Positions 1,625 through 52,030 of a stretch of DNA of 64,000 nucleotides are shown here, one piece after another (the first letter of the stretch is position 1; each line of letters starts with the position of its first letter). The translations under genes were made by a program, and so were the position numbers. The notes below the pieces were generated by a model, which saw nothing but the letters and a program-made list of their open reading frames with translations, was not told the origin of the DNA and did no database searches. Source of the DNA: Nemertoderma westbladi (Eukaryota; Animalia; Xenacoelomorpha). The stretch lies in contig JAUCBJ010008122.1 of the NCBI GenBank assembly GCA_032718475.1, positions 26,889 through 90,888 on the forward strand. Direction: 5' to 3'.

Positions 1625-2932
1625 ATCAATCAATCAATAGTATCAATAGTATAATCAATAGTATAATTTCGATTTACGCAATGTATGACATGAAATTTAC
1701 ATTATAGTTATACTGTAGCATTACAATTTTTCAATGTTACAATGTAACGTTTATTTAGCTAAAATTTGTAATGTTTGTGATAGTAATGTAATAGTACAGT
1801 AGATATAGATTTTAAATGACAAAAAAGAACAGTAGCATAGCTAGTGTTGTTCTATTTTGCCGTTGTGGTGCGTAGATATAAAGAGAAGAGTTCACGCCAT
1901 CATAATATTCATTATTTATAATTTCGGGTTAAATTGAGTTCTGTTTTATCCCATTTATGTCTATTGTAAATATTTATAAAACTAATAAATAATTATTGTA
2001 ATGTCTAGTATTATGCGTACAGATAGCAACGTGTGGGCACACCATTATACAAAATTAATTAATAAACTTTCATACTATTTTACTGATAGAAGAGAGAGGA
2101 TAATGACAAGACAAGATTATTCATTGATGAAGATGAGGTCGATGTTATTTCGTGTGTGTTAATTTATTAATATTAATATTCAAATATAAGTATATACTGT
2201 ATGTGTTAATTCTGGTTGTTTATTAAATATGTCTTGTACTTTCTTGCTAAAGATTTCTTGGATTTATTATTTTTTAAGTCAAACTGTAGTGAATTCCATA
2301 TTTTTGTGCGGCTATATTTTAGTGAATTTTGTGTTGATAGTAACCGAGTTCGTGGGAGAAAGAAATTTAAGGACGCTACTGATCTAGTATTATATTTATG
2401 TATTTTTGATGTCTGTTGAAATATAAAGATGTGATAAAAGGTTGCTTTTTATTGTTATTTATGTCCCACATTAATTTTGCTACTTCAAGTTTGTAAATGT
2501 TTTCTAACGTTAGTATGTTTAGTTGTTTATGTATTGGATTTGAATGTGACTGATAATGGCTAAAAGTGATGGCTCTTACAATTTTGTTTATTTTGACTCG
2601 AATTGGTTGTATATATTTGTTGTGAGTATTGCCCCATAGTATTATACCGTATTGTATGTATGGGTGAATAAGTGTAAAATAAAGTAATTTTAGTATGTTC
2701 TGTGGTAAGATATAACGTAGTTTAAAAAATATACCGCATGATTTTGATATTTTTTTGTATATGTATGCGCAATGGTATTTCCAAGATAGTTTGTTGTCAA
2801 TCCAGATACCCAGAAATTTTGTTTCGTTTTTAATTTTGATTACTGTATTGTTTATTTTAATGGGTTGAACTAAGTTTTGAGTTACATTTGAATTTGAGAA
2901 TAGTAAATATTCAGTTTTCTTTAGATTGAGTG
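1625..2932 (-). mobile_element. 3' part of a CR1/L2-group (Crack/Daphne-like) LINE: end of ORF2 plus 3' UTR, cut off by the LTR insertion
   Basis: Manual minus-strand translation from 2932 reads SLNLKKTEYLLF...KFLGIWIDNKLSWKYH...LLYFTLIHPYIQYGIILWGNT and, after a frameshift near 2410, ...KIWNSL. This continues in frame from ...WLLDNKL at the far side of the LTR element (~16435). A (TTGA)-like short-repeat tail near 1625-1665 is the tentative 3' end. Confidence 0.85.
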
Positions 2933-4115
2933 TGTAAAAGCTTTTGCGTAATTAGCCGGTTATTTTCCCGTAAAGTACTCTGTAGTTGGTTTACCAGGCA
3001 TAAAAAGGCCGTGTCCTTACTGTACTGGTGTTTTAGAGGACATAAAAGTCATTTCTTCTGTATGTGTACTTTAAAGGACATAATCCGTAATTTCGTGACG
3101 CAATAGCTGGATACTCTTGAAAACAGTGTCGCTACCATGACGACGGCTAACAGCTGATATTGCCACGTCGACATTTCTTTGTTTCTTTGTTCTCTCTTAG
3201 TTCAGTCAGCCAATCAGAGCATTTTTATGGCTCTTGTACAGAAATTTCCTAGAAATCACGCAATTCATTATGGGCAGTGTTTACATTCTGTCCTGAGCCA
3301 GTAAAGAACGGCTTTGGAGTATTTGTGCTTTTCTGCTTTAGCCTAACACTAGTAGGCTTAATTATAAGGACATATATCCGTTATCTGGGTAACTCAATGT
3401 TATCTGTTTACATTCTGTTAACTGGCCCATACTGTGCAACTTAACTTAACATTACTGCTTTGCTGTCGGTTATTCATTATATTTGTTGATGAATTATTAT
3501 ATTTGGAATAACGAGAAATACCCCCGAAACCCAATATTCTTGATATACCGAAGGTAAGAGAGAAAGGTTACATATAACGATTGCGACTTATGTTAAAGTG
3601 GTTTGAAGTGAATCTAATGTTATTTGATAGACCCTACATGAGTCGGTCTGTGTTCCTTTTATATGTGACTAAAATCAGTGAAGATCGGCAGATTAGTGTG
3701 CAGTATTGTGCAGCATTGTGTATGAGTGAGACTGATAACGAAGCATTTCCTAAAGAATGCGCCATATATGTGAATTGTAACTAAGCCATATCGTTGTGAG
3801 TAGTTTAAGTCATAACTCTGTTTATATAGATAGAGCGCCACGTCCTAAAGGAACTGTTAATATTCCCCGAAGGTGAATAATATTGTCAGAGATTATATAA
3901 TACTGTCAGTCGAATAATACATTAGGCTTACATAGCAATACGATTAAGCCGTCGAAGTCAATCTCCCGGGTATATCCAACGGGTGAATGATCGCGCACAG
4001 ATTGGTTTCAACTAGTGTAGTGAATCAAATACTTGTTAGAGGCTAAAGCGATTTATTATCTAGAAGACATCCTAATTTGGCGGGTTAAACTGCCAAAGGT
4101 CTGAAAGCGCGAACA
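2933..4115 (+). repeat. 5' LTR (1183 bp)
   Basis: Begins TGTAAAAG, ends GCGAACA. Matches 15230-16429 at offset 12297 apart from a 17-bp duplication in the 3' copy. CCAAT near 3210, TATA-like motifs near 3363 and 3822. Confidence 0.95.
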
Positions 4116-4264
4116 ATAACGGATATTTAGTCTGTATTGCAGTGTAGGCATTAAATACAGTTTAATATTGTTCTGGTAAGAACAATAACGGATATCGCTT
4201 CTTTATTGCAGTAAGCAATAAAGTTGAAAGTACCGGTCAACCGGTAAACCTGAACGGTATACAT

Positions 4265-4380
4265 CTGTAGGTCAGTAGGCCCAACTGCCAGAACCGGTAC
4301 TGCCGTAGGTCCGTAGGTCCAACTGCCAGAACCGGTACTTCTGTAGGTCCGTAGGCCCAACTGTCCAAACCGGTACTTCC
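4265..4380 (+). repeat. Three ~38-bp tandem repeats in the LTR-element leader
   Basis: Unit approximately CTGTAGGTCCGTAGGCCCAACTGCCAGAACCGGTACTT seen three times. Confidence 0.8.
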
Positions 4381-4555
4381 AGTATAAGTACATTAGTATT
4401 ATTCGAATTTGATAATCATATACCGGTAGGTCTTAGTACTTAATCAGGGAACGGCCGCCCTGGTTTTTATTGAGATTTTTACTTATTTCTGTCAAGTTTT
4501 ATTTGTTTGTAGGCCAGTATTGAACAGAAGGCGTGTAAGCCTGATCAGATTGTAC

Positions 4556-5895
4556 AGACAATTTGTAGGCTGAGCTGTTGTCTGATTGCTGTTAAGTCCG
4601 AACGGATTGCAGTGTGTGTAGATCACCTGTCCGATAAAGAACGGTTAGGAAGTAGGGGCAGCCAAAGCTGTAAGGTAAACCCCCAACTAAAGAATAAGTC
4701 GTACTACTGGGTTAGAACGCATGCTACCTAATCATTTCGGAGTCTGCATGTCCTGTAGTTTATTTAGGCTTGAGAGTAGTCTGCCATCGTTTAGTCTGTA
4801 CTTTGTTTGTGTAGCCTGTACAGGTAGCGTATAATATTTATTTAGATAATTTGTAGGCTGGATAGTTGTCTGGCTGTTGTTAAGTCTGAACGGATTGCAG
4901 TGTGTGTAGAGCCTCTGTCCGATAAAGAACGGTTAGGAAGTAGGGGCAGCCAAAGCTGTAAGGTAAACCCCCAACCCCGTATGCTAAGTGACTTTTTTGT
5001 GCGCCGAACGTGACGCGGCGCAGAAAAAAATGTGCGCCTGCGCAGTCGAAAACAGTGCAAAATCCGCGTGCGCAGCAGAAAAACTGCGCGAGATTGGCGC
5101 GCGCAGCAGAAATTCTGCGCGAGATTGGCGCGCACAGCAGAAATACTGCGCGAAATCTCCTACCTCTCCTATGTCCTACCTCTGTAGTACCGGTACTGTA
5201 CCGTACCACCTACCCCAGTACCCGCCTGCCTACTCTACTGGCCTAAGCAAGCCCTAAGCACACCAAGTAGGACGCTTTATTATTTTATTGACATTACAGC
5301 ATTGACATTACACATTGGCGCGCACAGCAGAAATACTGCGCGAAATCTCCTACCACGTACCTGCCTGCCTACTGCTGTACTGGCCTAAAGCACACCAAGT
5401 AGCCTAGCAAGTAGGAGGCTTATTATTTCAGTATTTCTTACAGTCTTATCTGTATTGTCATTACCGGTACCCTGTTACCGGTAGTCGGCAGACTGCCAGG
5501 GGTAGGTCTACTTACCGGCTGACTGGTACTGACTTAGTGCTGTAGTGCAAGTCTGAGCCGTGCTATCAATTTTCTGCGCCTGCGCCTGTCGCGCCGCGCT
5601 CTAAATTTTCTCTGCGCGGCGCTGTGTGGCGCTGCGCGGCGCTGCGCTGCGCTCTCAATTTTCTGCGCCTGCTCCAAATTCTGGAAAAAATTGTGCGCCG
5701 AACGCGTTCGGCGTACATGCCCTACTTAGCAGAATGGCCCCCAACTAAAGAATAAGTCGTGCTACTGGGTTAGAACGCATACTACCTAATCATTTCGGAG
5801 TCTGCATGTCCTGTAGTTTATTTAGGCTTGATAGTAGTCTGTCGGTATTTGGTCTGCATTTTGTTTGAGTGGTTTGTACGCGTAGCGTAATATTT
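4556..5895 (+). repeat. Tandem duplication of a ~288-bp leader module; the second copy is split by a MITE
   Basis: AGACAATTTGTAGGCT at 4556 recurs as AGATAATTTGTAGGCT at 4844. Copy 2 resumes at 5746 (TAAAGAATAAGTCG) after the insertion. Confidence 0.9.
4976..5737. mobile_element. Non-autonomous TIR element (MITE), 762 bp, 8-bp TSD
   Basis: TSD CCCCCAAC at 4968-4975 and 5738-5745. Imperfect TIR CCCGTATGCTAAGT versus CCATTCTGCTAAGT (11/14). GCGC-rich subterminal repeats. The empty site is visible in the first module copy near 4680. Confidence 0.9.
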
Positions 5896-7233
5896 ATTAT
5901 TCAGAGTTTATGCGATTATTCGCAACATTCATTCCCCAAGTTTGTTCCTACAATAATTGTGTTTGTTATACATACCGCTATAGTTAAATTAACCCCGGTA
6001 CTACACGGGCTGCTTGGCGTAGGTAAAGACTGGTGATTTTGTGCACCGGTCACTCCAGCAGATGCCGTGGTTCTTTTAGCTGTTCAAGTATATTTAACTA
6101 CTGATTATATGTTGTACAAGTACTCGTACCTAATTTAGGGTTTAGTGTACAGTGCTTTCCGAAAGTAATTAGTGTAGACATTATATTTGTGTTGTAAGGT
6201 AGTTGATAGGCACGTTCGATTAGCTCTATTAACTTCTAGGTGGGAACACTCCGTGATACATAACGTAGTACCTGTAGCGATACGGCTATAGGTCGTCAGG
6301 CGGTGGTATTTTCCTATCTGGACAACGCAGTGTATTTACTACTACGTATTATTTTCAAATACCGCAGTACCCTGTCCGTTGTAATAACCAGATTTCTAAC
6401 CCTTTGTTAGGCTGGTTTGTAGACTTCTTGTAAAATTACCCTGAAAATTCGTATTTTGTGTTTTTTGTAAATTTTTGTGTTTATTTAGAGATTGTAATCT
6501 CACCCGGATTGTACGTAATTTGTAGTATTAAGTAACTTAGGTAAATTAGCATTATTTGTTTTAGTGTCCTATAAGTAACACTTCACTGAAAGCGCACCGC
6601 TTTGTGTAGTGATTACTTCCCAGAAATAATAACATTTATTTCAAACATTAACAAAACCCATTAAAACAGTAAAACGGGTATATATATATTAAAAATCAAA
6701 TCTAACGAGTTATAAATAGTAGGCCTACCATACAACCATTAGGTCTCAATATCAGTTGGACTACTGCTCAAATAACGGTAATAAAGTAAGTAAAGTAACC
6801 AAGTAACCCTAAAATTCAGAAATTCAATTATTTAAAATAATTGATTAATTGATATACCGGTATTTACGATAGGCCTATTATCTTTATTTCTATAAATTTA
6901 GGCTGAAATTATACCGGTACTTTATAATTAATTCTAGTCCAGAATTATACTTATATATACTACAAACTGTAAGCTGTATACCGGTATTCCCGATAGGCCT
7001 ATTATATATTTATATATATTTGTGCTAAAATTATACCGGTATTCTGTGATAAACCTAGTCTGTAATAATACTTATATATACTATAAGCATACCGGTATTC
7101 TAATATATTATATATATCACGCTACACTGAGTAGCAGTATCGGTAATTAATTACTAGGCTAGCAGTTAATACTGAATTACTAGACTTGCTCAGACTGTAA
7201 TACAGCAGTAGACATTCAACTGTACACATAAAC

Positions 7234-10200
7234 ATGTCTGATACTAAGCAGAACCTGTCAGACAGTTTATTAGATGTAACTATCTGCGACTCAGATAGAG
7301 GCGTAGAACCGTCTAGTCGTAAGTTCAGTTCACCTCCCACTGTGAGGAAGGTCATCCCTCCTGTAGTAATAACAGAACCTAGGCTGGTCCAACATCGTAG
7401 GTCTATCATAGGCACTCGAGCTCAGGTCAAGCGGGACCAAGAAGCAGCAGAACAGCAACAACCCGCGAGCCAAGAACTTACTTCTCAACGGCCCAACAGC
7501 TCCAGTAGTGAGGATACTGTAGAACTGACACCAGAACGCGGAGCAAAGATGATGGATGCGGTTTATTCGGATCCCCTTCTCATCCTTCCTGCAGCCGTAC
7601 TCACTAGGTTATTGATTGCGGTGGAAGAACACCAGATCGATTGGGCGAGAAGTCAGCGATCAACTAGAGATAGTTATGCGGGATACACGAGGGAAGAACT
7701 GAAGTCTATTGTCGAGTCGCAATGGAACTTCCCCGGACCCGGACTCCCGTTTGATTTATCAGAAGCTGCCTGGGAAGACATACACCGGATGGGAGTAGCC
7801 AATGAAACCATCGATCCAGCTGTGTGGAAGAGGTCCGCAGCCGGATACGCACAGGGATTCTTCAGCTCTATGGAGCGAGTAGAAAAACAACTGTTACAAC
7901 AACCTCAAGGACCTCAAGAGCAGGGACAACTGCTTTATCAAGTTAGAGAAAGAATTCTGCGAATCAGGCTAATATTATCAGCCTTTGAAGAGGCTTCTAA
8001 AAGAAGACAAGACCCGTCGTTGCAAGTTGCCGTAAAGACTTGGTTTCAACGGGTGAGTCGCCAGGTTCAAGGAACAGCTCGGTGGAAAGCTCAGCTGGAG
8101 GAGCGCTCAACCCATGGAGAATCAACAGACGCTACTTTTTCCCAAGTGGAAAGTGAAGCGACGGCAGAGAAACCGCATAAGAGGGATGCCATTGACATCT
8201 ATCTGTCAGACTATCAACGTTTTTTAGGTGATGACGAGTTGAGGAGAAGGTTAGAGGGACTTAGCCCTAATAGTGAAGGAACCAAGCTTGTGTTGGATGC
8301 CATCGATGTGGAAATGAGGGCTGCGAACCAGGCTAAATTTGATGAACAACTCCGCATCACCAGAGTCCAAGAAGAACAAGTAAAGAAAAAACGTATAGAA
8401 GACAGAAAGGCAGCGGCAGTAGCAGCAGCAGTGGCAGCTGCAGAAGCAGAAAGAAAAGCGGCAGCGGCAGAGGCAGCGGCAGAGGCAAAAGTGGCAGCGG
8501 CAGAGGCAAAGGCAGCGGCCGAAGCGGAAAGAAAAGTGGCGGAGGCAGTGGCAGAAGCAGAACGGAGAGCGGCTGAAGAAACCACCCAATTAGAATTGGA
8601 AAACATTCAGGAGAATCAAGACTGCATAAATAAACAGTTAACAGCTAGTAATATGCAGATGATGAATCGATCTACTCCCAAAAGACAGGGATATACATCA
8701 TCTGAGGAAGGCGATACCACCGATACTGAAGGCAAAGAAAATAGATCTCGTCTAAGCAGACGTAAAAGAACGTTCCACCGTCAGAAATTGCCTGATTTGC
8801 CTCCAGCTGTTAGAAGGCAACTAAATAACACCAACTTAGGTAGTACAGAGCCCACAGACCAAATAATTAAAATAGAAAGACTCCCTACTATAGTAGATGA
8901 GCCTGAAATAATTAGGCCTGTTCTTGAAATCACCCCTTCGGTGATAGACACACCTGTGCTCCCTGAAGTTACCTCTAAATTCCCTCTGCACAGTACTAAG
9001 CTATCTGTGCCCAGTAGAACAGCCCATGAGACAGTTCAGGTCCTGGACCCCGAGCGAAATATTCATGATTTGTCGCCCGTTGTCCCTCGTCCGCCCGCTA
9101 CAACGTTGGCGACTCCCGCTTCGGCGGTCGAATGGGTGGACGAGAGACGGCGGGGGATGGATCTCCTGCTCGGGCAGATGCAGGAGACTGTTCAGCAATT
9201 CAAGGGCACAGTAAGGGAAAGTAGGCTAGAGTTGCAAGAAGTGCAGCAAAGTATCGCGCTAGAACGCGATAAATTAGTAAATTTACAAAAGGGTATATCA
9301 CCACCCCCTGTAACAATGTGTCAACCCGTTAGGTCTGAAGTATCCCATGCGCAAGGTGTGGAGCCTACACGCATCTATACTGCTAGCGAAGTAGAAACTC
9401 CTATAGTAAACCCTATTAAGGGTAATTATAAACCTGTTGATAATGATATCTCATCTAGACTTGATAATAATCCGAGAAACTTATATACCGATAATTCTCT
9501 ATTCAATAATGCGATGGCTCAAGAAAGTTTTACACGCCAAATGGCTAGAACCGAAGCCCGACAAGCGGTAAAGGTTGGAGAGATCGTCAAGTTCAATGGA
9601 GATGAGATGAAATGGTTACCTTTTAATGAATATTACAAAGATAACATACAGAACTCTGTACTATCTAACGGAGAGAAACTTAGATTCCTCATCGAATGTT
9701 TGGAAGGACCTCCCAAGTCAATGGCGTTAAAATTTATTGGACATCCAGATGGATTAAGACAAGTTTGGGATACACTAAACATCAGGTATGGTAATAGGAC
9801 TAACATAGCTAGGTATTTATATGCGAAATTAATGGCGCCCCGAAAGTTTCTTAGCAGCGGGATTATAGAGTTTTCCGATGAGATTCAGGAGATCTGTAGA
9901 CAACTAGATTGGTTAGGTAAGTCTCATGAATACCAGAATTCTATGGTTGTAGGAGCCTTAGCATCTACTTTGCCCAAGGGTGGAGTAGGTACACGCTGGG
10001 ACAAGAAGGTGTTATATATGATGGAACAACAACAACGAGACCCTACCATGGCTGATCTCATGTCATTCTTGGATAGCGAGGTGAAATTACAGCTCATAAA
10101 GCAGTCCAGAGAGAAGACAGCGGAAAGTAAGGTAAGTGAGAAACCCGTTTCTAGGAGAAGGGTAACACCAGTATGTTATACCGACGACGGTGAAAGCCAA

Positions 10201-12165
10201 ACTTCTCAAGGAGAGGACAGCGGGAAAGACACTGACAGATCTTATTATGTCAATAAAATGCCTAAAGATCAGGTAAGTAAATCCAAGTCTCGACCCAATG
10301 ACAGAAGGGAACCGGTACAAAAAACCCCTCCTACGTCTCCTAAAAGAATTCAGGTGAGAAAGCCCGAGGAAAGAACAAGTGTGCACCACACAGCACATGT
10401 TAAAGTAAGTAACATCAAGCCCAAATGTGTGCTGTGCGACGGGCCCCACCGTTTAAATGCGTGTGATAAATTCCTGAGGAAATCACTAAAGGATAGACGT
10501 GAAGTCATGTGGGATAAGCGGTTGTGTTACAATTGCCTCAGACGAGGACACCAACGGCGAACCTGTTACTCCGACGCAAGGTGTGCAAAGAGCGGCGCAA
10601 AACATCATATCTTGTTGCACACGGCATTCGAACGAAACAGCCCGAGTCAGGTAAGTGAGTCCGAACTACATGTCCAATTCAGTGATGTGAACGACACTGA
10701 TCAATCTGAGATGGAAGGATTCTATACGGACGAGTTCTCCGACCAAAACGAATCCTGTTACCTAATAAACACCACCGCAGTGTATCGAGCACTCATGCAT
10801 GAGAAAGACACAGACAGCGACCTTACCTTAACTACTTCTGATCAACAACCATCTTGGAAAGCGCCAACTTCCAATATAGGAATCCGAGAATTTCCTGTAG
10901 TCCAGTTACGGGTCCACGGACCTCAGAAGAGCTATATAGTGAACGCCCTCCTGGACTCCGGTAGCACAGGAACATTCATCGATAAAGAACTAGCCGAAGT
11001 CATCTTTGCTGGACAACCCAAGTTCCGAACCAAGCTAAACATGTCAGGGATCATGCAGGTTTGGAATTCTACTGTAGCTGCCGACTATTATATAGGTGAG
11101 TTGTCCACTCCACAGGATAAACTAGGAGAATACAGTATAAGGTCAGTAAAAATGGTGGCAATAAAGAACTTCTCTACCACCCAAGTGGAACCTTATAATT
11201 GGGACGAAGATGATCATGTCCAACAACTTAACATCCCTAGATTCGACACCGATTATCCTGGAGTACAAATATTAATCGGTCAAAACGCGCATGAGGCGCT
11301 GGAGACATTAGAGAAACGACCTACTCAACCGCAACCACTTCAGACCTACGCGGTAAGAACTAGAGTAGGTTGGTACCTTACTGGACCTTCCCGAAGAACG
11401 CTCAGAGAAAGACTGCTTCAAGATCGCGTCTGCCAGGTGAGTGAATGGGAAGATGATACTAGTGAGGGAGACGACCCAACTGAGGGAACACCATACTCCT
11501 CAGATAATGACGATATTAGCTCCAATGTAGATCAATGGAGATATTGCCCCAAGAAGTTTAATCCAACTGACATCGCTTCCAGAGGAGCAACTCCTCAAGA
11601 ACTGACAGATACTACAGACCGGTTAGGTGAACCCGACTTCCTGAGTAAGGAGGATGAATGGCCTCCCCATCTTACTCCGGCTGAGATTAGACAAGCCAAG
11701 GGAGCGGAGAAAGTCAAACCTAAAACCCGGACGGGTGGATCGGAGTTATTTGAACCCGGGATAGATCTGTCGGTATTACATATTGCCAGTGACAACGCCG
11801 TGGATCTGGACCTCCCCACCGCGAGTGGATCCTTCATGAAGATCAGAGAGAGCGATTGGAGCTCTGGAACATCAGACGTCTCGCAGGGACTCTCACCTCT
11901 CCTGCAGGGAGCGACGGACCACTATAGCTCCTGGAATCGGCTTTGTAACGCCGTCATATACTTTGAGCGATGTTTCTATCGTCACTATTCCAGGACGAAG
12001 AGGAAACCTGGAATTGTATTCGGGATGCAGCGACTCAATCACCCAGTCGGTCGTTTGTGTTTACCGGAAGGGAATGGAGGACTCTCCGGAAACTGTGGAA
12101 GGCAAGATTCTCTTCCCACGACCACCTCCCTAATCCTTCAAACATCTAGGGACTCCATAACGTAA
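7234..12165 (+). CDS. BEL/Pao Gag-protease polyprotein (1643 aa), internally deleted for RT, most of RNase H and integrase
   Basis: DUF1759-type Gag motif KFNGDEMKWLPFNEYY. Zinc knuckles CVLCDGPHRLNAC, CYNCLRRGHQRRTC and CAKSGAKHHILLH. Aspartic protease ALLDSGSTGTFI, then ILIG and RTRVGW. These are followed directly by the RNase H C-terminal motif QWRYCPKKFNPTDIASRG...WP, the connection motif YSSWNRL and a C-terminal HPVGRLCL. No YVDD RT motif and no DDE integrase. Confidence 0.93.
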   Translation: MSDTKQNLSDSLLDVTICDSDRGVEPSSRKFSSPPTVRKVIPPVVITEPRLVQHRRSIIGTRAQVKRDQEAAEQQQPASQELTSQRPNSSSSEDTVELTPERGAKMMDAVYSDPLLILPAAVLTRLLIAVEEHQIDWARSQRSTRDSYAGYTREELKSIVESQWNFPGPGLPFDLSEAAWEDIHRMGVANETIDPAVWKRSAAGYAQGFFSSMERVEKQLLQQPQGPQEQGQLLYQVRERILRIRLILSAFEEASKRRQDPSLQVAVKTWFQRVSRQVQGTARWKAQLEERSTHGESTDATFSQVESEATAEKPHKRDAIDIYLSDYQRFLGDDELRRRLEGLSPNSEGTKLVLDAIDVEMRAANQAKFDEQLRITRVQEEQVKKKRIEDRKAAAVAAAVAAAEAERKAAAAEAAAEAKVAAAEAKAAAEAERKVAEAVAEAERRAAEETTQLELENIQENQDCINKQLTASNMQMMNRSTPKRQGYTSSEEGDTTDTEGKENRSRLSRRKRTFHRQKLPDLPPAVRRQLNNTNLGSTEPTDQIIKIERLPTIVDEPEIIRPVLEITPSVIDTPVLPEVTSKFPLHSTKLSVPSRTAHETVQVLDPERNIHDLSPVVPRPPATTLATPASAVEWVDERRRGMDLLLGQMQETVQQFKGTVRESRLELQEVQQSIALERDKLVNLQKGISPPPVTMCQPVRSEVSHAQGVEPTRIYTASEVETPIVNPIKGNYKPVDNDISSRLDNNPRNLYTDNSLFNNAMAQESFTRQMARTEARQAVKVGEIVKFNGDEMKWLPFNEYYKDNIQNSVLSNGEKLRFLIECLEGPPKSMALKFIGHPDGLRQVWDTLNIRYGNRTNIARYLYAKLMAPRKFLSSGIIEFSDEIQEICRQLDWLGKSHEYQNSMVVGALASTLPKGGVGTRWDKKVLYMMEQQQRDPTMADLMSFLDSEVKLQLIKQSREKTAESKVSEKPVSRRRVTPVCYTDDGESQTSQGEDSGKDTDRSYYVNKMPKDQVSKSKSRPNDRREPVQKTPPTSPKRIQVRKPEERTSVHHTAHVKVSNIKPKCVLCDGPHRLNACDKFLRKSLKDRREVMWDKRLCYNCLRRGHQRRTCYSDARCAKSGAKHHILLHTAFERNSPSQVSESELHVQFSDVNDTDQSEMEGFYTDEFSDQNESCYLINTTAVYRALMHEKDTDSDLTLTTSDQQPSWKAPTSNIGIREFPVVQLRVHGPQKSYIVNALLDSGSTGTFIDKELAEVIFAGQPKFRTKLNMSGIMQVWNSTVAADYYIGELSTPQDKLGEYSIRSVKMVAIKNFSTTQVEPYNWDEDDHVQQLNIPRFDTDYPGVQILIGQNAHEALETLEKRPTQPQPLQTYAVRTRVGWYLTGPSRRTLRERLLQDRVCQVSEWEDDTSEGDDPTEGTPYSSDNDDISSNVDQWRYCPKKFNPTDIASRGATPQELTDTTDRLGEPDFLSKEDEWPPHLTPAEIRQAKGAEKVKPKTRTGGSELFEPGIDLSVLHIASDNAVDLDLPTASGSFMKIRESDWSSGTSDVSQGLSPLLQGATDHYSSWNRLCNAVIYFERCFYRHYSRTKRKPGIVFGMQRLNHPVGRLCLPEGNGGLSGNCGRQDSLPTTTSLILQTSRDSIT

Positions 12166-12713
12166 CAACATATGGAGTGGGTGTGTGACTCTATTTTTTT
12201 ATATTATTTTATTATTTTTATATTTCTGTATGTATTACTATGTAATTTTATTATAATCGTTTTCTTTAATTTTATTCAGTAGAATGTTATTTTAGCGATT
12301 ATTTAGTAGATTAGTGCAATATATTCGTGTTTATTGCGTACGTAATTACTTATATTATATTTAGTGCGATGGCGAGAAATAATTCTTTTCCTCCTTCCTT
12401 ACTGTCCGTATTACATTACAAATACGTAACTACAGTAAGATGAAATGTCCGTACTTATTAAAGTACAATAAAGCCACTACTATATTCAAGTATTATTGGT
12501 AGGCAGAGTATTAGGAATGCAAAGTTCAGATCCTCGTGTCTCGGCTAAACCAAGCTCTGGGTAGACCTTGGAAACGACTTGCCTCTTCACACTGACATTG
12601 CTTCGTGCGATATTGCTCTCATACCGTATATTAAATAATACATATAGTAGCGTGATGTCCCTTTAACAGTAGCGTACAACGCAAATTAATCTGTTAAACC
12701 CTTTGACCATCTG

Positions 12714-13020
12714 CAATTCTAGTCGATTAAGATATCGCGGCACCCACCGATATACTTGAAAGACAAATTTTAGAATCAGTGGTTAACGTCCCCAGACAAG
12801 TTCTGGAATAAATCGGTGCCCATCTCAAATATTAATTATTTAATATTTGCAAATCTAATAAATCAAAATCTGTAAAATTCAGATCCTTCAACAATTCTAG
12901 TCAATTAAGATATCGTAGCATTTACCGATATTCTTAAAAAGACAATTGTCATAGAATTAAGGATCTTGTGCCCCCAGACATATTCTAGAATCAAAATATG
13001 TCCATTTAATTATTAAATAA
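12714..13020 (+). repeat. Diverged ~178-bp tandem duplication in the 3' non-coding region of the LTR element
   Basis: CAATTCTAGTC(G/A)ATTAAGATATCG...CCCCAGACA..TTCT occurs at ~12714 and ~12892. Confidence 0.75.
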
Positions 13021-13559
13021 TAAAATTTCAGGGAATAATTTAAATTCATGCCTTTTAATGAATTTAATAAATTGCCATTTTTACGCAATTTATAACATTC
13101 CCAAAATTCCATTAATTAATAGATCACGGGAGCGGAGATTTATCTTATCATGCGTATGAGTGTGCGAAAGTCTTCCAAACATAGTCCATAGCCGATAAAA
13201 TTCATAAAGTCATGTATAAAACAGGACATTGACCATTAAAGAATTACTATTAAATAACATCCCAGATCTGTATGCATTGGAATTACCCTAATTCTACCGC
13301 TAGCTTTACATAATGTCACCATAGCAACAACCACGCTAGAATTAGAATTGAGTTAAAAGAACAATAGAAAGCTTGTCCCATTGAATAGCATAGGGAATAA
13401 ATAGCGCACTGCTAGTATCCAAGGATACATAATAATACAGTGACATTCTGGAAGGCATTGACTAACGGACAAATGGCCCGAGTGTGTGTAATTTGTGACA
13501 AGTTGTGTGTGTGGTATTTGTGAGTTTATAGGCGAATGTTACTACTAAGGTGTGTTTAC

Positions 13560-13775
13560 AGTAGCGAGTCGCAATTGTGAAAGTAACCCTAACTCTCCAG
13601 TAAGAACCTGAGGTGTATCTAAGCCTTTGGGACGGACAGTCGAGTGACTTGTGCCGGTTGTCGTTGTCGTTGTGCGGCTACGTCGTTGGCGAAAGTACAG
13701 CGGCGACGACACATCGGCGCTGAGGATCTCGCACTGTCCGGGGGCTAATTGGGGTAGGCAGCGACGCTCACTAGC
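13560..13775 (+). other. Predicted structured cis-acting RNA element
   Basis: Nested complementary arms: 13651-13675 with 13695-13720 (non-WC positions are G.U, one bulge), 13633-13644 with 13728-13740, 13586-13592 with 13749-13755, and 13563-13572 with 13761-13768. Short GAAA-capped stem near 13575-13586. Confidence 0.6.
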
Positions 13776-15229
13776 CTAAATATAAACTCCTTATAATATG
13801 GATAAACTCATATATAGCAGATATGACGGAGTTGATAGAAGATGGTCTTGGTATCAGGGAGCGATATACTCTACTTTCAAGCGTTTGTTGATAGCTTGAT
13901 ACGCGGTGATACTAGTCCAACTACTACGAAGGATGATGGTCGTTATATCGAACCTACGATTTCCTGGAAGTAACTTACGCGTGAATTGGACTATGGAAAA
14001 TTCACCGCTTGCTACACGCATTGTAATGGTACGTATATGGACTTCTTAACCATTGGCCATTCTATCGATTTACACGATACGGACTATGTCGAACATATCC
14101 TACCCAGAGGAGTCGAAACGATAAACCAAAATTCTAATGCGAAAATCCTATTCGAAATCGACTCGAAAGAAAAGACATTAAAGAAACAAATAAACGCGGT
14201 AACTCCAACATATATTTGGAATTCTTGATAGAAGCATTGTAACAACAAATAAATATCATCCGCGTTTCCCCTACCAGACGTGCGTCTTTGGTATTATTAC
14301 GATAAATGCCCTAGACCCAGCAAATAAACGGAAAGACATAAACATCCACGGAAACGTTGTGTTAAACACAGTTGTGCTCGTTATATTTACTGGAGTTTCG
14401 AGCGAAACTTGTTTGACGTATCACCTATGCTCACTCGGCTCGAACGATCCTGGAGTAAACCTACGATCAGAGTCCCGGAATACTCGGTCAAACCTCCTCA
14501 TTCCTTAGTTGGACCTCAGACCTGCGATCCTGGTGGTGTCGCGGATCCTCGCGGACTGTATTCACTGTTCAAAGATCTAGTGCTACCCTAACAATTAATC
14601 GGTAACACTCCGACAGTGATTTCTAGCTAGCCGCCCATCTTACCTAGCCGGATTGTGACGCGGACACCTAATATCACTATCCAACCGTATGGTCGTTCCC
14701 GTTTAACGCGATACAACCCTTCATCAAGGTGAAGGAGAGCGTTGTACGAAACGAGTTAAACGCTATTCTATAAAGATCAAAAAAGAAACCTGCGTTTGTT
14801 CAGATAAACGTAAGTTATAACAGTAAGTCCAATCGATAAACGAATTGGCCTTATCTCAGTTCGATTGGGAAATCTCGAATCTCTAAGAAGATATCAAGCT
14901 TAGAAAACCCTATTCTCTGCGAGAGTTTTGGACGAACGTATCCCATGACAAGCGGAGGAAAATCAGCTCGAGGAGAAGCATATCGAAATGGACGAGACAC
15001 CGACCGTAAACCCAAACCTTCTAATGCAATTGTATTGCACCCTTTACCCAGGAGTTATAGCCTTTCCAGTAAAGTGGCTCGCCCCAAAGAGAAAAGGACT
15101 CTTGCTGGCCTCTGGAAACTGCGTGAACGCCGTCCGCGCAAGAAAAACTAACTGTTTAGAGTATCTTTATATTTTAGAAACTGTGATTTGTTATATTTTA
15201 TAGACTTAAATCCCATTTTCTGGGAGCGG

Positions 15230-16429
15230 TGTAAAAGCTTTTGCGTAATTAGCCGGTTATTTTCCCGTAAAGTACTCTGTAGTTGGTTTACCAGGCATAA
15301 AAAGGCCGTGTCCTTACTGTACTGGTGTTTTAGAGGACATAAAAGTCATTTCTTCTGTATGTGTACTTTAAAGGACATAATCCGTAATTTCGTGACGCAA
15401 TAGCTGGATACTCTTGAAAACAGTGTCGCTACCATGACGACGGCTAACAGCTGATATTGCCACGTCGACATTTCTTTGTTTCTTTGTTCTCTCTTAGTTC
15501 AGTCAGCCAATCAGAGCATTTTTATGGCTCTTGTACAGAAATTTCCTAGAAATCACGCAATTCATTATGGGCAGTGTTTACATTCTGTCCTGAGCCAGTA
15601 AAGAACGGCTTTGGAGTATTTGTGCTTTTCTGCTTTAGCCTAACACTAGTAGGCTTAATTATAAGGACATATATCCGTTATCTGGGTAACTCAATGTTAT
15701 CTGTTTACATTCTGTTAACTGGCCCATACTGTGCAACTTAACTTAACATTACTGCTTTGCTGTCGGTTATTCATTATATTTGTTGATGAATTATTATATT
15801 TGGAATAACGAGAAATACCCCCGAAACCCAATATTCTTGATATACCGAAGGTAAGAGAGAAAGGTTACATATAACGATTGCGACTTATGTTAAAGTGGTT
15901 TGAAGTGAATCTAATGTTATTTGATAGACCCTACATGAGTCGGTCTGTGTTCCTTTTATATGTGACTAAAATCAGTGAAGATCGGCAGATTAGTGTGCAG
16001 TATTGTGCAGCATTGTGTATGAGTGAGACTGATAACGAAGCATTTCCTAAAGAATGCGCCATATATGTGAATTGTAACTAAGCCATATCGTTGTGAGTAG
16101 TTTAAGTCATAACTCTGTTTATATAGATAGAGCGCCACGTCCTAAAGGAACTGTTAATATTCCCCGAAGGTGACTATTCCCCGAAGGTGAATAATATTGT
16201 CAGAGATTATATAATACTGTCAGTCGAATAATACATTAGGCTTACATAGCAATACGATTAAGCCGTCGAAGTCAATCTCCCGGGTATATCCAACGGGTGA
16301 ATGATCGCGCACAGATTGGTTTCAACTAGTGTAGTGAATCAAATACTTGTTAGAGGCTAAAGCGATTTATTATCTAGAAGACATCCTAATTTGGCGGGTT
16401 AAACTGCCAAAGGTCTGAAAGCGCGAACA
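15230..16429 (+). repeat. 3' LTR (1200 bp) preceded by a short PPT-like tract (15222-15229)
   Basis: Same sequence as the 5' LTR, plus a duplicated TATTCCCCGAAGGTGA at 16158-16190. Confidence 0.95.
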
Positions 16430-16974
16430 GAGTGATAACTTGTTGTCTAGTAGCCATTCACTGAGTTTTTGGAGTTCATTATTAACTGTTAATACTAAAG
16501 AGTTTGTATTAGAATGTGTGTGCAGTAGGTTAGTGTCGTCAGCAAAAAGCGTAGTGAGGGATGTGCAGTTTGGTAAGTCATTCATATAAAGTAAAAAGAG
16601 TGTACTGTTTAGTATAGCGCCTTGTGGAGTACCACAGAGGGGGGTTAGAGGGTCGGATTGTATATTATTTAGAACGACTGTGTGTGATCTGTCAGTAAGA
16701 AAGCTCTTGAGTAGATCGTGTGGGAGGCCTCTTATTCCGTAACTGTTTAGTTTTTTTAATAATATCCCGTGGTCTAAAGTGTCAAATGCCTTCTTCAAGT
16801 CAATATAAATTATACAACCAGTATTCTGTGAGTCTAGTGCTTCTTGTAGGCGTTCTGTTATTGTTAGTATGGCATCTGTCGCAGTTAATTTTTTTCTAAA
16901 TCCGTATTGAGAGTCGCATAATATAGAGTATTTGTTTAGGTAGCTCAGTAGTTGTGTATTAATTATCCGTTCGT
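16430..16974 (-). mobile_element. RT core of the CR1/L2-group LINE (middle piece)
   Basis: QYGFRKK, YIDLKKAFDTLDH, GTPQGAILNSTLFLLYMND and FADDT motifs in ORF 16370-17002. Confidence 0.92.
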
Positions 16975-23462: not shown

Positions 23463-24305
23463 TTATAAATCTCGACGGAAAATGTTGTTGTTGGCGTTGA
23501 CTCCCCAAACTTCTCCGTTGTAATTGCTTACGCTGATTTGTCTCAACCCGCCTGCGACCTGCTTCCACACCGGATTTTGATTGTCACAAGAGATATTGTC
23601 AGCTTCGTAGATTTTATCATCCACGCCTGTGGCCCAAAGGACACCGTTGGCTCCTGAGCTGATTGTCCGCAGCTTCAATTCTAGTTTGGAGATCCAGAGG
23701 GGAGTCGGTTCCAATGTGTTGCAGCGGAAGGATTTATCAAGATAGAAGTAGGTATTGGCAGTGTTGACTCCCCAGACGCCGGAATATCCGTAGGATATGT
23801 AGGAGAGACCGCCGGCTATTACGGTCCACCCTGTACCGACGTTGTCGGCGCAGGATATACCCGCTCTCTGGAAGATTTGGCCTCCCGCGTTGATACCATA
23901 AACTCCGTTGTCTATAGAGTTGACGGTGATTAGTGCCAATCCGCCGGCAACTTGGTTCCAACCACTTTCCCCTGTTGGTGTTGTTTCCGAGACATTTCCG
24001 CGGTAATAGATACCTCCGCTGGGATGTATACCCCAAACGATGTCATGTCCGACAGCAATATTCTTCAAAGATCCATCAACGAGTTGCCACCTGGTTCCGG
24101 CTCCGGCTTTCTCATAAGTTCCCACCCTGTAGAAGATGTTGTTTGCGGCATTCACCCCCCACACTCCAGCCCTTCCTACATCAACGTGGGCGAGACCGCC
24201 GTCGATCAGTTGCCAATCTGATCCACTATAGTAAGCGTTTCCCGAGATAAACAACTGTGCGAACACAATGGTAACAATTAGTGCACGGTATTGGAATCGA
24301 TTCAT
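23463..24305 (-). CDS. Secreted tectonin/tachylectin-1/fish-egg-lectin-type beta-propeller lectin, 280 aa
   Basis: ATG at 24305 gives a signal-peptide-like N-terminus MNRFQYRALIVTIVFAQLFISGNA, then about six repeats of W..(I/V).GGL..(I/V).VG...VWG(V/I)N....I(F/Y).R. Uninterrupted ORF; AATAAA signals are not evident immediately downstream, but the region is AT-rich. Confidence 0.9.
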   Translation of the reverse strand: MNRFQYRALIVTIVFAQLFISGNAYYSGSDWQLIDGGLAHVDVGRAGVWGVNAANNIFYRVGTYEKAGAGTRWQLVDGSLKNIAVGHDIVWGIHPSGGIYYRGNVSETTPTGESGWNQVAGGLALITVNSIDNGVYGINAGGQIFQRAGISCADNVGTGWTVIAGGLSYISYGYSGVWGVNTANTYFYLDKSFRCNTLEPTPLWISKLELKLRTISSGANGVLWATGVDDKIYEADNISCDNQNPVWKQVAGGLRQISVSNYNGEVWGVNANNNIFRRDL

Positions 24306-24479
24306 TATTGTTGCAGCTACTGGAGTTGATTTGTCAAACTTGTGTCGCAAATATAACAGATTCAATTCCAAATTCGTTATTGAAATCAATGCGTACAGGT
24401 ACAGTACACACCTATAATGGGAAAATAAGTATAATTATTTTAACTACGTAAAAGTGCGGAATAGGGTCGTGATGGTACT

Positions 24480-44699: not shown

Positions 44700-46241
44700 T
44701 AACATAAGAAAGAAGGCCAGCTATATGCACACAAACCCAAGGAAGTTTTGGTCCACCTTCAATGCAAAGCGCTCCAGTATCCCTTCACCAGCAGCTTACA
44801 TCGCAATTGAACCCGATCTGGTCTCAAACAATATTCAAGATGCCTCCTTTGATGAGTCCATTAATCAGATCGTGAATGACCTCAGAGTTTTACAGAACAA
44901 TGCAACCCTTCCTATTATTTCACCAGAAACAATCAGAAAAGCAATTTCTAGTTTGGGTAAAGGCAAATCTCCAGACGCATACTCGCTTGTAGTTGAACAC
45001 TTTTTACTTCTAGACTGCGATCTGATCTGTCGAACTATGGCTGATGTTATTAATATGTGTTTCAAATTAGGTGAAGTTCCACCTTGTTTCGGTAAAACTA
45101 TTGTAAACATGCTTGTACAAGGGCAAAGAAAGGGATCCACTGCTAAGCAAGTCCTATCTCCTCTGTTAGTATTTTTGGTAAGATCTTCGAATCTGTATTA
45201 CTCCACGAATTCATCCAAATTGCTGAAAACATCCCTAGCTCACAGTTTGCATACCGTCGAAAAATCGGGACAGATGTAATAATCAGTGGTGTTCTAGAAT
45301 TCCTTGAAGCACAACGAAAAAAGGGAACCAGTGTCTTCATATGTCAACTAGATATGTCGGGGGCTTTTAACAATGTAGAACTTAGTATACTCTTTAGAAG
45401 ATTAATGAATTATATCAACCCTCACATATTTTACAGTTTAGCTTTGTTGTCTTATTATATGCAAAATGTCGCTCATCTGAAATTTGGTGGTCTCATTAAC
45501 GACCATGGAATCAAGCTCATTGGAGGATTAAAACAAGGATCTTTGCTATCTCCGAATTTCTACACCAAGGGCGTGTTGGAGAAACTGAAAGAATCTGGTT
45601 TTGGAAAAAATCTTACCGATCTGTGGTTGGGATTTGTTGCATACGCTGATGACCTTCTAATCTGTGCAAGATCTGTTGCTGAGCTCGAGGTCATTACAGG
45701 TATAGTTATCGACAAACTGCAAGAATCAAAACTGGGAGTGGAGGACAGCAAAACTCGATGGAACTACTATCTTGGAAGCGGCTGTTTAAAATTTACTTCA
45801 AAAAACTACTTTTCTGAATATCGGGGGTACCTTGATCCCGCCTCACCCGAAACTGAACTTCCTTGGCTTCACATTACCGACTGGTCACGGCAACCACCTT
45901 CTGGAGTGTATCCAGTGTGTTTATCGTGCTTCCGATATTTTTCATCGCCGCTTCGCCATCGTCATTTGGACTGTGATACCGTCGGATTTCTTTGGCGCAT
46001 GATAGGAATACCATCTATCACCTACTCATTTCGGTTCTTGGCGGGATCACTTAGTAAAGTCGAAACCCGTAAATTAGAGATTGAGTATCGGAAGGCCCTG
46101 CGGGGTCTCATACTGGTCGGCCCCTACGTTAACAACCAGATCATTTACAATCTACTTGGGTCCCGCCCTCTACACAATGTGGTATACAAACAGTGCATAG
46201 GTACCATACTAAGAGTAACTCGGGATCCCAAGATAATATAG
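44700..46241 (+). pseudogene. Decayed non-LTR retrotransposon RT (RTE-X/L2-like), frameshifted
   Basis: NPRKFWS and IRKAISSLGKGKSPD in one frame, a frameshift near 45130-45150, then QFAYRR, LDMSGAFNNV, GLKQGSLLSPNFY and AYADDLLI. Confidence 0.85.
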
Positions 46242-46520
46242 GGATCCTGAGTTACTATCTCGGGATCCCGAGTTAGTATCTCGGGATCCCGAGTTAGTAT
46301 CTCGGGATCCCTACTTATTATCTCGGGATCTCGAGTTACTATCTCGGGATCCCGAGTTTGTATCTCGGGATCCCTACTTATTATCTCGGGATCCCGAGTT
46401 ATTATCTCGGGATCCCGAGTTACTATCTCGGGATCCCTACTTATTATCTCGGGATCCCGAGTTATTATCTCGGGATCCCGAGTTACTATCTCGGGATCCC
46501 GACTTATTATCTCGAGATCC
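46213..46520. repeat. 21-bp tandem repeat GAGTTA(C/T)TATCTCGGGATCCC, about 14 units, first unit inverted
   Basis: Read directly; unit junctions form the palindrome CTCGGGATCCCGAG. Confidence 0.92.
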
Positions 46521-47076
46521 ACTTGTTTAATTGATCATTCGGAAACTAGAAACGCGGCGAGGTGGGTAGCGTGAAACGAACCTGCCCCCCCCCCCCACTT
46601 TTGACATTTTTTGAAAAACGTTTGGCCATATATAATAATATACGTACAGATTTGGAATCTTCGCAATTACGCCCACAAACACTAAGGATTCCCCAAAGGG
46701 ATTTGATTTTGGTAGTGCATTTTAAATGAACATTTTATCTACAAAATCACGTCCCTTTAGCGGTTGGTCCGGCTCCATAAACAACAAATAAATAAAAATA
46801 CCCATGCCATAATTTGCGGTATCTGCGTGGATTTTCCGGGGAAAAGATTTACGACTTAAGTTTGAATTAATAGAAATTATATTTATATATTAATTATGTA
46901 ACAAAATTATAATAATACACTGCTTTATTGATTGCATAAAGATGAAACTAGGAAAATGTGCGAATCTCTTTAGTCTTTATGTAGAAATTGCATGTCACAC
47001 CATTGGAATATATGATACATGCGCGTGACATACACTGGCTGGCTTCGCTTGCGTCTCCCGTAGCTTGTCCCATTTC

Positions 47077-50000
47077 CTGGGTCTCCCATCACCTACCATT
47101 CGGGTCTCCCATCTACTACCATTACTCGGGTCTCCCATCTCCCACCATTATTTGGGTCTCCCATCTCCTACTATTATCTCTCGGGTCTCCCATCTCCTAC
47201 CATTAATCGGGTCTCCCATCTCCTACCATTACTCGGGTCTCCCATCTCCTACCATTACTCGGGTCTCCCATCTGCTACCATTACTTGGGTCTCCCATCTG
47301 CTACCATTACTTGGGTCTCCCATATCTTACCATTACTCGGGTCTCCCATCTGCTACCATTACTTGGGTCTCCCATCTCTTACCATTACTCGGGTCTCCCA
47401 TCTGCTACCATTACTTGGGTCTCCCATCTCCTACCATTACTCGGGTCTCCCATCTGCTACCATTACTTGGGTCTCCCATCTCTTACCATTACTCGGGTCT
47501 CCCATCTGCTACCATTACTTGGGTCTCCCATCTCCTACCATTACTCGGGTCTCCCATCTGCTACCATTACTTGGGTCTCCCATATCTTACCATTACTCGG
47601 GTCTCCCATCTCTTACCATTAATCGGGTCTCCCATCTCCTACCATTACTCGGGTCTCCCATCTGCTACCATTACTTGGGTCTCCCATCTTCCACCATTAC
47701 TTGGGTCTCCCATCTCTTACCATTACTCGGGTCTCCCATCTCCTACCATTACTCGGGTCTCCCATCCCCTACCATTACTCGGGTCTCCCATCTCTTACCA
47801 TTACTTGGGTCTCCCATCTCCTACTATTATCACTCAGGTCTCCCATCTCCTACCATTACCCGGGTCTCCCATCTCTTACCATTAATCGGGTCTCCCATCT
47901 CCTACCATTACTCGGGTCTCCCATCTGCTACCATTACTTGGGTCTCCCATCTTCCACCATTACTTGGGTGTCCCATCTCGTACAATTACTTGGGTCTCCC
48001 ATATCTTACCATTACTCGGGTCTCTCATCTGCTACCATTACTTGGGTCTCCCATCTCTTAACTATTACTCGGGTCTCCCATCTGCTACCATTACTTGGGT
48101 CTCCCATCTCCTACCATTACTCGGGTCTCCCATCTGCTACCATTACTTGGGTGTCCCATATCTTACCATTACTCGGGTCTCCCATCTGCTACCATTACTT
48201 GGGTCTCCCATCTTCCACCATTACTTGGGTCTCCCATCTCTTACCATTACTCGGGTCTCCCATCTCCTACCATTACTCGGGTCTCCCATCTCCCACCATT
48301 ATTTGGGTCTCCCATCTCCTACTATTATTACTCGGGTCTCCCATCTCCTACCATTACTCGGGTCTCCCATCTCCTACCATTACTTGGGTCTCCCATCTCC
48401 TACTATTATTACTCGGGTCTCCCATCTCCTACCATTACTTGGGTCTCCCATCTCCCACCATTATTTGGGTCTCCCATCTCCTACTATTATTACTCGGGTC
48501 TCCCATCTCCTACCATTACTCGGGTCTCCCATCTCCTACCATTACTTGGGTCTCCCATCTCCCACCATTATTTGGGTCTCCCATCTCCTACCATTACTCG
48601 GGTCTCCCATCTCCTACCATTACTTGGGTCTCCCATCTCCCACCATTATTTGGGTCTCCCATCTCCTAGTATTATTACTCGGGTCTCCCATCTCCTACCA
48701 TTACTCGGGTCTCCCATCTCCTACCATTACTTGGGTCTCCCATCTCCCACCATTATTTGGGTCTCCCATCTCCTACCATTACTCGGGTCTCCCATCTCCT
48801 ACCATTACTCGGGTCTCCCATCTCCTACCATTACTTGGGTCTCCCATCTCCCACCATTATTTGGGTCTCCCATCTCCTAGTATTATTACTCGGGTCTCCC
48901 ATCTCCTACCATTACTCGGGTCTCCCATCTCCTACCATTACTTGGGTCTCCCATCTCTTACCATTACTCGGGTCTCCCATCTCCTACCATTACTCGGGTC
49001 TCCCATCTCCTACCATTACTCGGGTCTCCCATCTCCTACCATTACTCGGGTCTCCCATCTCCACCATTATGGGTTCCCATCTCCTACTCGGGTATCTCCT
49101 ACTCGGGTCTCCCATCTCCTACCATTACTCGGGTCTCCCATCTCCTACCATTACTTGGGTCTCCCATCTCCTACCATTACTTGGGTCTCCCATCTCTTAC
49201 CATTACTCGGGTCTCCCATCTCCTACCATTACTCGGGTCTCCCATCCCCTACCATTACTCGGGTCTCCCATCTCCTACCATTACTTGGGTCTCCCATCTC
49301 CCACCATTATTTGGGTCTCCCATCTCCTACTATTATTACTCGGGTCTCCCATCTCCCATCTCCTACTATTATTACTCGGGTCTCCCATCTCCCACCATCA
49401 TTTGGGTCTCCCATCTCCTACTATTATTACTCGGGTCTCCCATCTCCTACCATTACTCGGGTCTCCCATCTACTACCATTCCTTGGGTCTCCCATCACCT
49501 ACTATTATTACTCGGGTCTCCCATCTCCTACCATTACTTGGGTCTCCCATCTCTTACCATTACTCGGGTCTCCCATCTCCCACCATTACTTGGGTCTCCC
49601 ATCTCTTACCATTACTCGGGTCTCCCATCTCCTACTATTATTTCTCGGGTCTCCCATCTCCTACCATTACTCGGGTCTCCCATCTCCCACCATTACTCTG
49701 GTCTCCCATCTCCTACCATTACTCGGGTCTCCCATCTCCTACCATTACTCTGGTCTCCCATCTCCTACCATTACTCGGGTCTCCCATCTCCTACCATTAC
49801 TCTGGTCTCCCATCTCCTACCATTACTCGGGTCTCCCATCTCCTACCATTACTCGGGTCTCCCATCTCCTACCATTACTCGGGTCTCCCATCTCCTACCA
49901 TTACTCGGGTCTCCCATCTCCTACCATTACTCGGGTCTCCCATCTCCTACCATTACTTGGGTGTCCCATTTCCTACCATTACTCGGGTCTCCCATCTCGT

Positions 50001-50152
50001 ACCATTACTTGGGTCTCCCATCTCGTACCATTACTTGGGTGTCCCATTTCCTACCATTACTTGGGTCTCCCATATCCTACCATTACTTGGGTCTCCCATC
50101 TCCTACCATTATTTGGGTCTCCCATCTCCTACCATTACTCGGGTCTCCCATT
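47077..50152 (+). repeat. Minisatellite, 26-bp unit CTCGGGTCTCCCATCTCCTACCATTA with 29-bp variants, roughly 115 copies
   Basis: Continuous array with strong C/T strand bias, ending about 50 bp from the MED23 stop codon. Confidence 0.97.
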
Positions 50153-50204
50153 TTCCTCATATTCGCCGTCTCTACCTACCCACATGGTCCCGAGTTCAAC
50201 CCCA

Positions 50205-51511: not shown

Positions 51512-51845
51512 CTAAACATAAAATTGAATTTTCGTCAAATATAAGGCTATAAGAGGATGCCAATTTATATTAAGATAAGAATAATTTTTAGAAATAGAAA
51601 TGCAAAAAGATTCAACATGTACTATATTTACTACAGACAATAAATATTTAGTCTTCATTTTTCATATTATAACTTTAACAAACACCTACCGGTAAATCCC
51701 CCACCATTTTATTTTTTCAAATCAGAATTCATCCAATCCAATGACAACTAATTGGTAACTATGGTAACTCCCAAAAATGAAACTGAAACCTGTTCATTCT
51801 CCTCTCCTTTAATTGATAATGTAATATTGGTTATTGAGACGGAGT

Positions 51846-52030
51846 ATTAATTTGCCGTGATGGGATTCCCCCCACCCCCCATATTAATTTGCCGTGATGG
51901 GATTCCCCCCACCCCCCATATTAATTTGCCGCGATGGGATTCCCCCCACCCCCCATATTAATTTGCCGCGATGGGATTCCCCCCACCCCCCATATTAATT
52001 TGCCGTGATGGGATTCCCCCCACCCCCCAT
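51846..52030. repeat. Five copies of a 37-bp repeat in the MED23 intron
   Basis: ATTAATTTGCCG(T/C)GATGGGATTCCCCCCACCCCCCAT x5. Confidence 0.95.

Follow-up and report, generated by a model that had tools for sequence, protein, structure and literature searches.

Self-priming of reverse transcription has been described for gypsy elements of the Tf1/sushi and Tcn1 types (accessible portions of PMC6317226, PMC7175516, PMC4600332, PMC6934838 and PMC3601003), and in Tf1 the primer is freed by RNase H, according to the part of PMC7175516 that is available. For the TAR lineage of plant Ty1/copia elements (Houba, Osr-1), the available text of PMC6317226 predicts self-priming from a match of at least 10 bp located 0–5 nt after the LTR. 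According to the ICTV description, Belpaoviridae are primed by host tRNA, at an 18-nt site for tRNA-Arg or tRNA-Gly (PMC8742986). The words primer, tRNA and PBS do not occur in a BEL/Pao survey (PMC3118150), neither tRNA nor PBS occurs in the accessible portion of the Sinbad paper (PMC554778), and the accessible portion of PMC8220671 has nothing on priming. In the openly accessible main articles, we found no report of self-priming in BEL/Pao. For the C. elegans element Cer7, a tRNA-like primer encoded by the element has reportedly been proposed; this would be a mechanism of another kind.

We analysed a stretch of 64,000 nt from Nemertoderma westbladi (the window), in which a retroelement with LTRs, Gag and protease occupies positions 2933–16429. 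Like Tf1 and Tf2 of Schizosaccharomyces pombe, Tj1 of S. japonicus and the Tf1/sushi and Tcn1 elements as their accessible descriptions present them, it has no tRNA site and about 11 bases complementary to its own LTR (PMC7175516, PMC4600332, PMC6317226). This complementarity is longer than 10 bp and starts within 0–5 nt past the LTR, as in TAR, although TAR elements are copia elements of plants and their self-priming is a prediction only in the text available (PMC6317226). The Tf1/sushi groups are Ty3/gypsy, whereas Gag, protease and the RNase H end of the window element are of BEL/Pao type; its Gag and protease do not fit a Ty3/gypsy (chromovirus) ancestry. Its LTRs, Gag with Cys-His boxes, protease, RNase H and purine tract resemble those of Belpaoviridae (PMC8742986 and the accessible portion of PMC554778). 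It differs from the ICTV description in lacking the tRNA site, which is also missing in seven of eight comparison families, and this copy differs further in having neither reverse transcriptase (RT) nor integrase core. The element can probably be likened to Tf1 in taking a primer from its own LTR, yet it stands outside the Tf1/sushi group.

Structure and coding content of the element

Both LTRs begin with TG and end with CA, and the 5-bp target site duplication (TSD) GAGTG is present on both flanks (Table 1). As no substitution separates the two LTRs, the insertion is recent, and their identity indicates that a recent reverse transcription of the element succeeded. The 1654-codon frame matched DUF1759 with an E-value of 3.4e-13 and also contains Cys-His boxes and a protease motif. 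A comparison profile built from 24 long BEL/Pao-type proteins matched the window protein over profile positions 81–696 (E 6e-78) and 1249–1317 only; RT motifs (about 893–972 of the profile) and the integrase core were not found in the six frames of the element, which thus does not have the complete pol order PR-RT-RH-IN. With RT and integrase core missing, the copy is non-autonomous. A protein search with the window protein returned only four distant matches, carrying Pao-type Pfam domains, and in a quick Gag-protease tree with the unnamed relatives whose profile retrieved the comparison loci, it stood on a long branch and none of them was supported as its sister. Judged by its sequence, the element is BEL/Pao-derived, a non-autonomous derivative rather than a complete family member.

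The leader (4116–7233) is unusually long, at 3.1 kb, and has internal duplications (4556–4687/4844–4975, 4680–4842/5738–5898 and 6853–7100). Downstream of the long frame, 12165–15229 is a degenerate 3 kb with short frames and no Pfam match, which may be the remains of an extra gene. Elsewhere, the window contains long satellite arrays (about 25700 onward, 47000–50300 and 46170–46580) whose repeat units measure 29, 26 and 21 bp, Med23 in two long frames with few introns (50205–55733, minus strand), a tectonin-domain gene (23463–24434, minus strand) and an RT fragment (45147–46241, plus strand).

Table 1. Positions of the features discussed, numbered from the first base of the window.
Feature	Position	Strand	Remarks
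TSD GAGTG	2928–2932	+	second copy 16430–16434
5' LTR, 1183 bp, TG...CA	2933–4115	+	versus 3' LTR: zero substitutions, a single 17-nt indel
CCAAT box	3210–3214	+	kept in sister LTR; possible upstream promoter element
5' strands of nested helices common to sister LTR	3335–3377	+	
Helix H1	3335–3344 with 4040–4049	+	
Helix H2	3346–3353 with 4011–4018	+	
Helix H3	3355–3362 with 3943–3950	+	
Helix H5	3370–3377 with 3764–3771	+	
TATA-like TATAAGGA	3363–3370	+	6/8 to TATAWAWR; sister LTR 8/8
Candidate self-primer ATATCCGTTAT	3374–3384	+	predicted 3'-OH after 3384
Hairpin near LTR end	4077–4096	+	kept in sister LTR, one G-C to G-U change
Tandem pair of 69-nt leader units, hairpin in each	4111–4248	+	4111–4179 and 4180–4248
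Putative primer-binding site, copy 1	4116–4126	+	adjoins LTR, without TGG
Putative primer-binding site, copy 2	4185–4195	+	
Frame of 1654 codons	7201–12165	+	Gag (DUF1759), Cys-His boxes, protease, then RNase H end
Purine-rich tract	15222–15229	+	adjoins 3' LTR
3' LTR, 1200 bp	15230–16429	+	contains the 11-mer, 15671–15681
Sister-family solo LTR, 1193 bp	60550–61742	−	5-bp TSD; about 75% identical

The match at the primer-site position

The first bases after the 5' LTR do not contain the TGG of a tRNA-type start, nor an ICTV-type 18-nt site for the 3' end of tRNA-Arg or tRNA-Gly, and no tRNA genes were found in the window. The sequence at this position, ATAACGGATAT, occurs at 4116–4126 and 4185–4195 and its reverse complement at 3374–3384 and 15671–15681; the primer site pairs perfectly with the LTR from offset 0 and no further than 11, and the duplex has about −12 kcal/mol. 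Our analysis reproduced all the coordinates of the initial annotation (the end of the 5' LTR at 4115, the 11-mers and the second junction), as well as its statement that TGG is missing and that pairing extends over exactly 11 bp. The chance of such a match is about 5e-4 (4e-4 to 8e-4): at least 11 bp against the window LTR was reached by 5 of 11,084 internal positions and by 10 of 28,300 other window positions, and the 11-mer was present in 16 of 20,000 LTRs from a second-order Markov model. When offsets 0–5 and splice junctions were allowed, none of 400 pseudo-sites reached 11.

The second junction copy, presented earlier as standing in an otherwise diverged copy, is real and is more correctly the place, at 4180, where the second of two tandem leader units of 69 nt begins. 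These units agree at each of their first 16 nt (LTR end and 11-mer), through site base 11, and diverged afterwards. The hairpin at 4166–4187 folds as initially described, with 2 of 200 shuffles equally good. In one X1 contig 4110 is joined to 4180, which indicates that single-unit copies exist. By eye, the 11-base stretch that follows an LTR-like end has two differences from the window site in one single X1 contig and five in another; neither variant unit pairs perfectly with either window LTR, and both are unlinked to LTRs. The unit with five differences, which follows a leader unit and not an LTR, agrees at 8/11 positions with the primer site predicted for the sister family, versus 6/11 with the window site, also by eye. 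The predicted site itself was not found as such. Among the joints listed for X1, which is made up of contigs only, none of seven has GT-AG ends; this weighs neither way.

Own-LTR matches in other BEL/Pao loci

Profile scans gave 78 metagenome loci and 7 loci in genome contigs, and a scan of viral contigs gave none. Of these 85 fetched loci, 75 were excluded as lacking an independently fixed LTR end; the comparison set is made up of the 10 loci in which both LTR ends are fixed by the repeat itself (set by eye in L022 and L085, where the two LTR copies part), forming eight families after L016 was grouped with L085 (96%) and L079 with L080 (78%). An own-LTR match of 11–15 bp at the primer site was found in nine of the ten loci, or seven of the eight families, and for each of these matches at most 1 of 400 pseudo-sites did as well. 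Against the LTRs of other families, the best match of the primer sites was 9. The tenth locus, from the eighth family (L054), has a TGG site and a best own-LTR match of 4.

In eight of the nine loci (six families), the matching LTR bases lie on both sides of a GT-AG intron with a pyrimidine-rich acceptor, so that the match crosses the junction, and in the remaining one (L063) it is contiguous, as in the window element. The splice filter of the pseudo-site test was set after the junction results were known; all GT/AG pairs gave the same best junctions. Between L079 and L080, three bases before the donor differ, and so do their three partner bases in the site. The primer sites of these relatives mostly begin with GT at offsets 1–4, and that of the window element with AT at offset 0. 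We also considered a splice-made primer for the window element and rejected it, since among all GT and AG pairs no junction match exceeded 8 bp. In the relatives, a match created only by splicing indicates that RNA does the pairing and that the primer is inside the transcript in these families, and as it falls where minus-strand synthesis must start, self-priming would be its simplest reading.

In 16 further loci the LTR end was inferred from the pairing, which is circular and allows no null, and these were left uncounted; seven of them had a candidate of at least 11 (L001, L003, L010, L033, L041, L042 and L046), and the remaining nine gave 10 or nothing. One of these nine, L022, was later counted once its end had been fixed from the two LTR copies. 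GT-AG introns lie inside the LTRs of L016, L022, L024, L026, L055, L079, L080 and L085, with the exon junction pairing with the primer site; such introns may survive reverse transcription if the 3' LTR copy is left unspliced. L079–L085 are animal-type BEL/Pao elements within bacterial genome bins, likely through host contamination. In L012 and L043, whole elements stand head-to-tail with one LTR in common, unless these are assembly artefacts.

Start site, folding and the source of the primer

In one alignment of two sequences, the window LTR and the sister solo LTR, all three perfect helices of at least 7 bp common to both are nested, with their 5' strands in 3336–3377. The nested chain includes three double changes. 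Of 300 local column shuffles, 0 gave such a chain or as many double changes, whereas 32 contained three helices. A second alignment of the pair adds H3, with three double changes in 7 bp. When each LTR was folded alone, pairing was 0.92/0.98 for H1 and 0.95/0.83 for H5, and 0.00–0.03 for H2 and H3. A block at 3833–3882 is 96% identical between the two families, which are about 75% identical overall. The hairpin near the LTR end may be U5-IR-like; in Tf1/sushi self-priming, such a stem beside the primer site is reportedly required. The shared helices suggest an RNA that holds 3335–3377 together with 4049, either one whose 5' end lies upstream of 3335 or the copy in the 3' LTR, if polyadenylation occurs late.

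No ORF is common to the window and sister LTRs, and AATAAA is absent from the window LTR. An Rfam search of 2900–7300 for a group I intron or known ribozyme gave one weak unrelated match (E 0.77), and by eye H1–H5 do not fit the P3/P7 order of a group I core. A hairpin of 5 bp, in which 3384 forms a U-G pair, was likewise discarded, as it is not kept in the sister LTR. A strong splice-donor consensus at 3551–3559 is present in the sister LTR too, but the rest of the LTR after it offers no convincing acceptor. Motifs like GGACATA and like CACGCAAT are repeated in U3, at 2997–3105, 3256 and 3368–3399. The reservations attached to the initial annotation hold: TATAAG is present at 3363, the module around the 11-mer recurs at about 3068–3105, and the sister solo LTR has AAATCTATTAC.

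Our preferred reading, to which we give a probability of roughly 0.6, is that the window element primes minus-strand DNA from an internal piece of its own LTR RNA. The packaged RNA would begin upstream of about 3335, which would place the primer inside it, just as the spliced relatives have it, and 3374–3384 would anneal to 4116–4126. By analogy with Tf1, the RNase H of an RT that an autonomous relative provides in trans would cut after 3384 and free a 3'-OH. RT would then copy 4115 back to 3385 and jump to the 3' LTR. The primer site would be regenerated when the plus strand is copied from the primer, which would explain joint change of primer site and LTR. H5 includes the first four primer bases and primer pairing crosses H1–H3, so that primer pairing and the helices are likely alternative folds; the long-range helices may thus gate primer pairing. 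In global folds the 11-mer is unpaired with copy 1 of the site (0.00–0.01), most of which pairs with neighbouring bases instead. That the 3' LTR stops at the true LTR end would nevertheless fit priming at copy 1 if the duplication pre-existed. Apart from the TATA-like box discussed below, several observations count against this reading: the near-zero pairing with copy 1, the low values of H2 and H3 in the single folds, the conflict of primer pairing with H1–H3 and H5, the long branch of the window protein, the different first bases and offset of its primer site, the imperfect pairing of the X1 variant units with the window LTRs (by eye) and the recurrence of the module around the 11-mer.

A transcript that begins at or within a few bases of 3374, so that its first 11 bases serve as primer and the TATA-like hexamer is no TATA box, is a less likely form of self-priming than an internal primer, and on its own unlikely. 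The pairing length of 11 and its abrupt end speak for it, as does Tf1, which uses its first 11 bases according to the accessible portion of PMC7175516. Global folds begun at 3374 pair the 11-mer with copy 2 at 0.9–1.0, and this pairing declines to about 0.57 from 3330, 0.47 from 3300 and 0.06–0.39 from 3250. Against such a start, the sequence some 30 nt before 3374 contains nothing TATA-like, the primer is internal in the spliced BEL/Pao relatives whereas that of Tf1 is the 5' end of the transcript, and the shared helices involve bases upstream of 3374. Thus, of the interpretation first offered for this locus, tRNA-independent priming gains support from the other BEL/Pao families, and the strict Tf1-like start at 3374 becomes its less likely form.

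The main objection to an internal primer comes from the TATA-like box, which lies 11 nt upstream of the 11-mer. With the usual TATA spacing, transcription would begin at about 3393, and the 11-mer of the 5' LTR would not be transcribed. The 11-mer would then belong to U3, and its copy in the 3' LTR would pair with the primer site in cyclisation, as a dimer contact or as a switch; the primer would be another RNA, or the 3' copy of a second, sacrificed RNA. H1–H5 could form in the 3' LTR, and the site is semi-palindromic (8/11), both of which count for this reading. In the relatives, however, the matching segment lies well within the transcript, at the point where minus-strand synthesis must begin, and the window element has no tRNA-type site from which to prime. 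The long-range helices soften the TATA objection, as they tie 3335–3377 to the 3' part of the LTR, but they leave the start site undecided, since the copy in the 3' LTR could form them instead. In Tf2, a downstream start omits the primer and an upstream start is competent (Persson et al. 2016; accessible portion of PMC5341516). Two such starts could reconcile the TATA-like box with self-priming, although the downstream start of Tf2 lies beyond the LTR in that account (PMC5341516) and two starts within the window LTR are only a guess. Taken over all its variants, a U3 position of the 11-mer also seems unlikely to us.

We consider it decidedly unlikely that the match arose by chance, the site binding an unrecognised host RNA such as a tRNA fragment or having decayed in a non-autonomous copy. 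Scanning many elements will yield some events of 5e-4, and leader and LTR match perfectly over 11 bp at one more place (4396–4406 with 3910–3920), which has no known role and is itself probably due to chance. The match at the primer site, however, lies exactly at the LTR end, the same signature recurs in seven of the eight other families, the 11-mer is kept in both leader units, and the LTR identity indicates recent successful reverse transcription. Very improbable is a reading of the 11-mers as oppositely oriented DNA sites for a transcription factor: they include TAACGG, which we take to be a Myb-type site, and lie within a repeated U3 module, but this leaves the position at the LTR end and five further matching bases unexplained, the motif is changed in the sister LTR, and the junction-spanning matches of the relatives do not exist in DNA.

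Overall, self-priming by the element's own LTR RNA is likely when all its forms are taken together. The odds lie a little above even that much of BEL/Pao has swapped tRNA priming for a self-primer internal to the transcript, mostly splice-built and, in the window element, unspliced and gated by a conserved fold. A self-primer in these elements would mean that self-priming arose independently for a third time, in addition to Tf1/sushi gypsy and TAR copia elements, and its geometry, internal and often splice-made, would differ from that of the other two. Self-priming would couple reverse transcription to host RNA processing and may release the elements from the supply of tRNA and from silencing by tRNA fragments. 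It would also account for BEL/Pao elements overlooked by PBS-based annotation.
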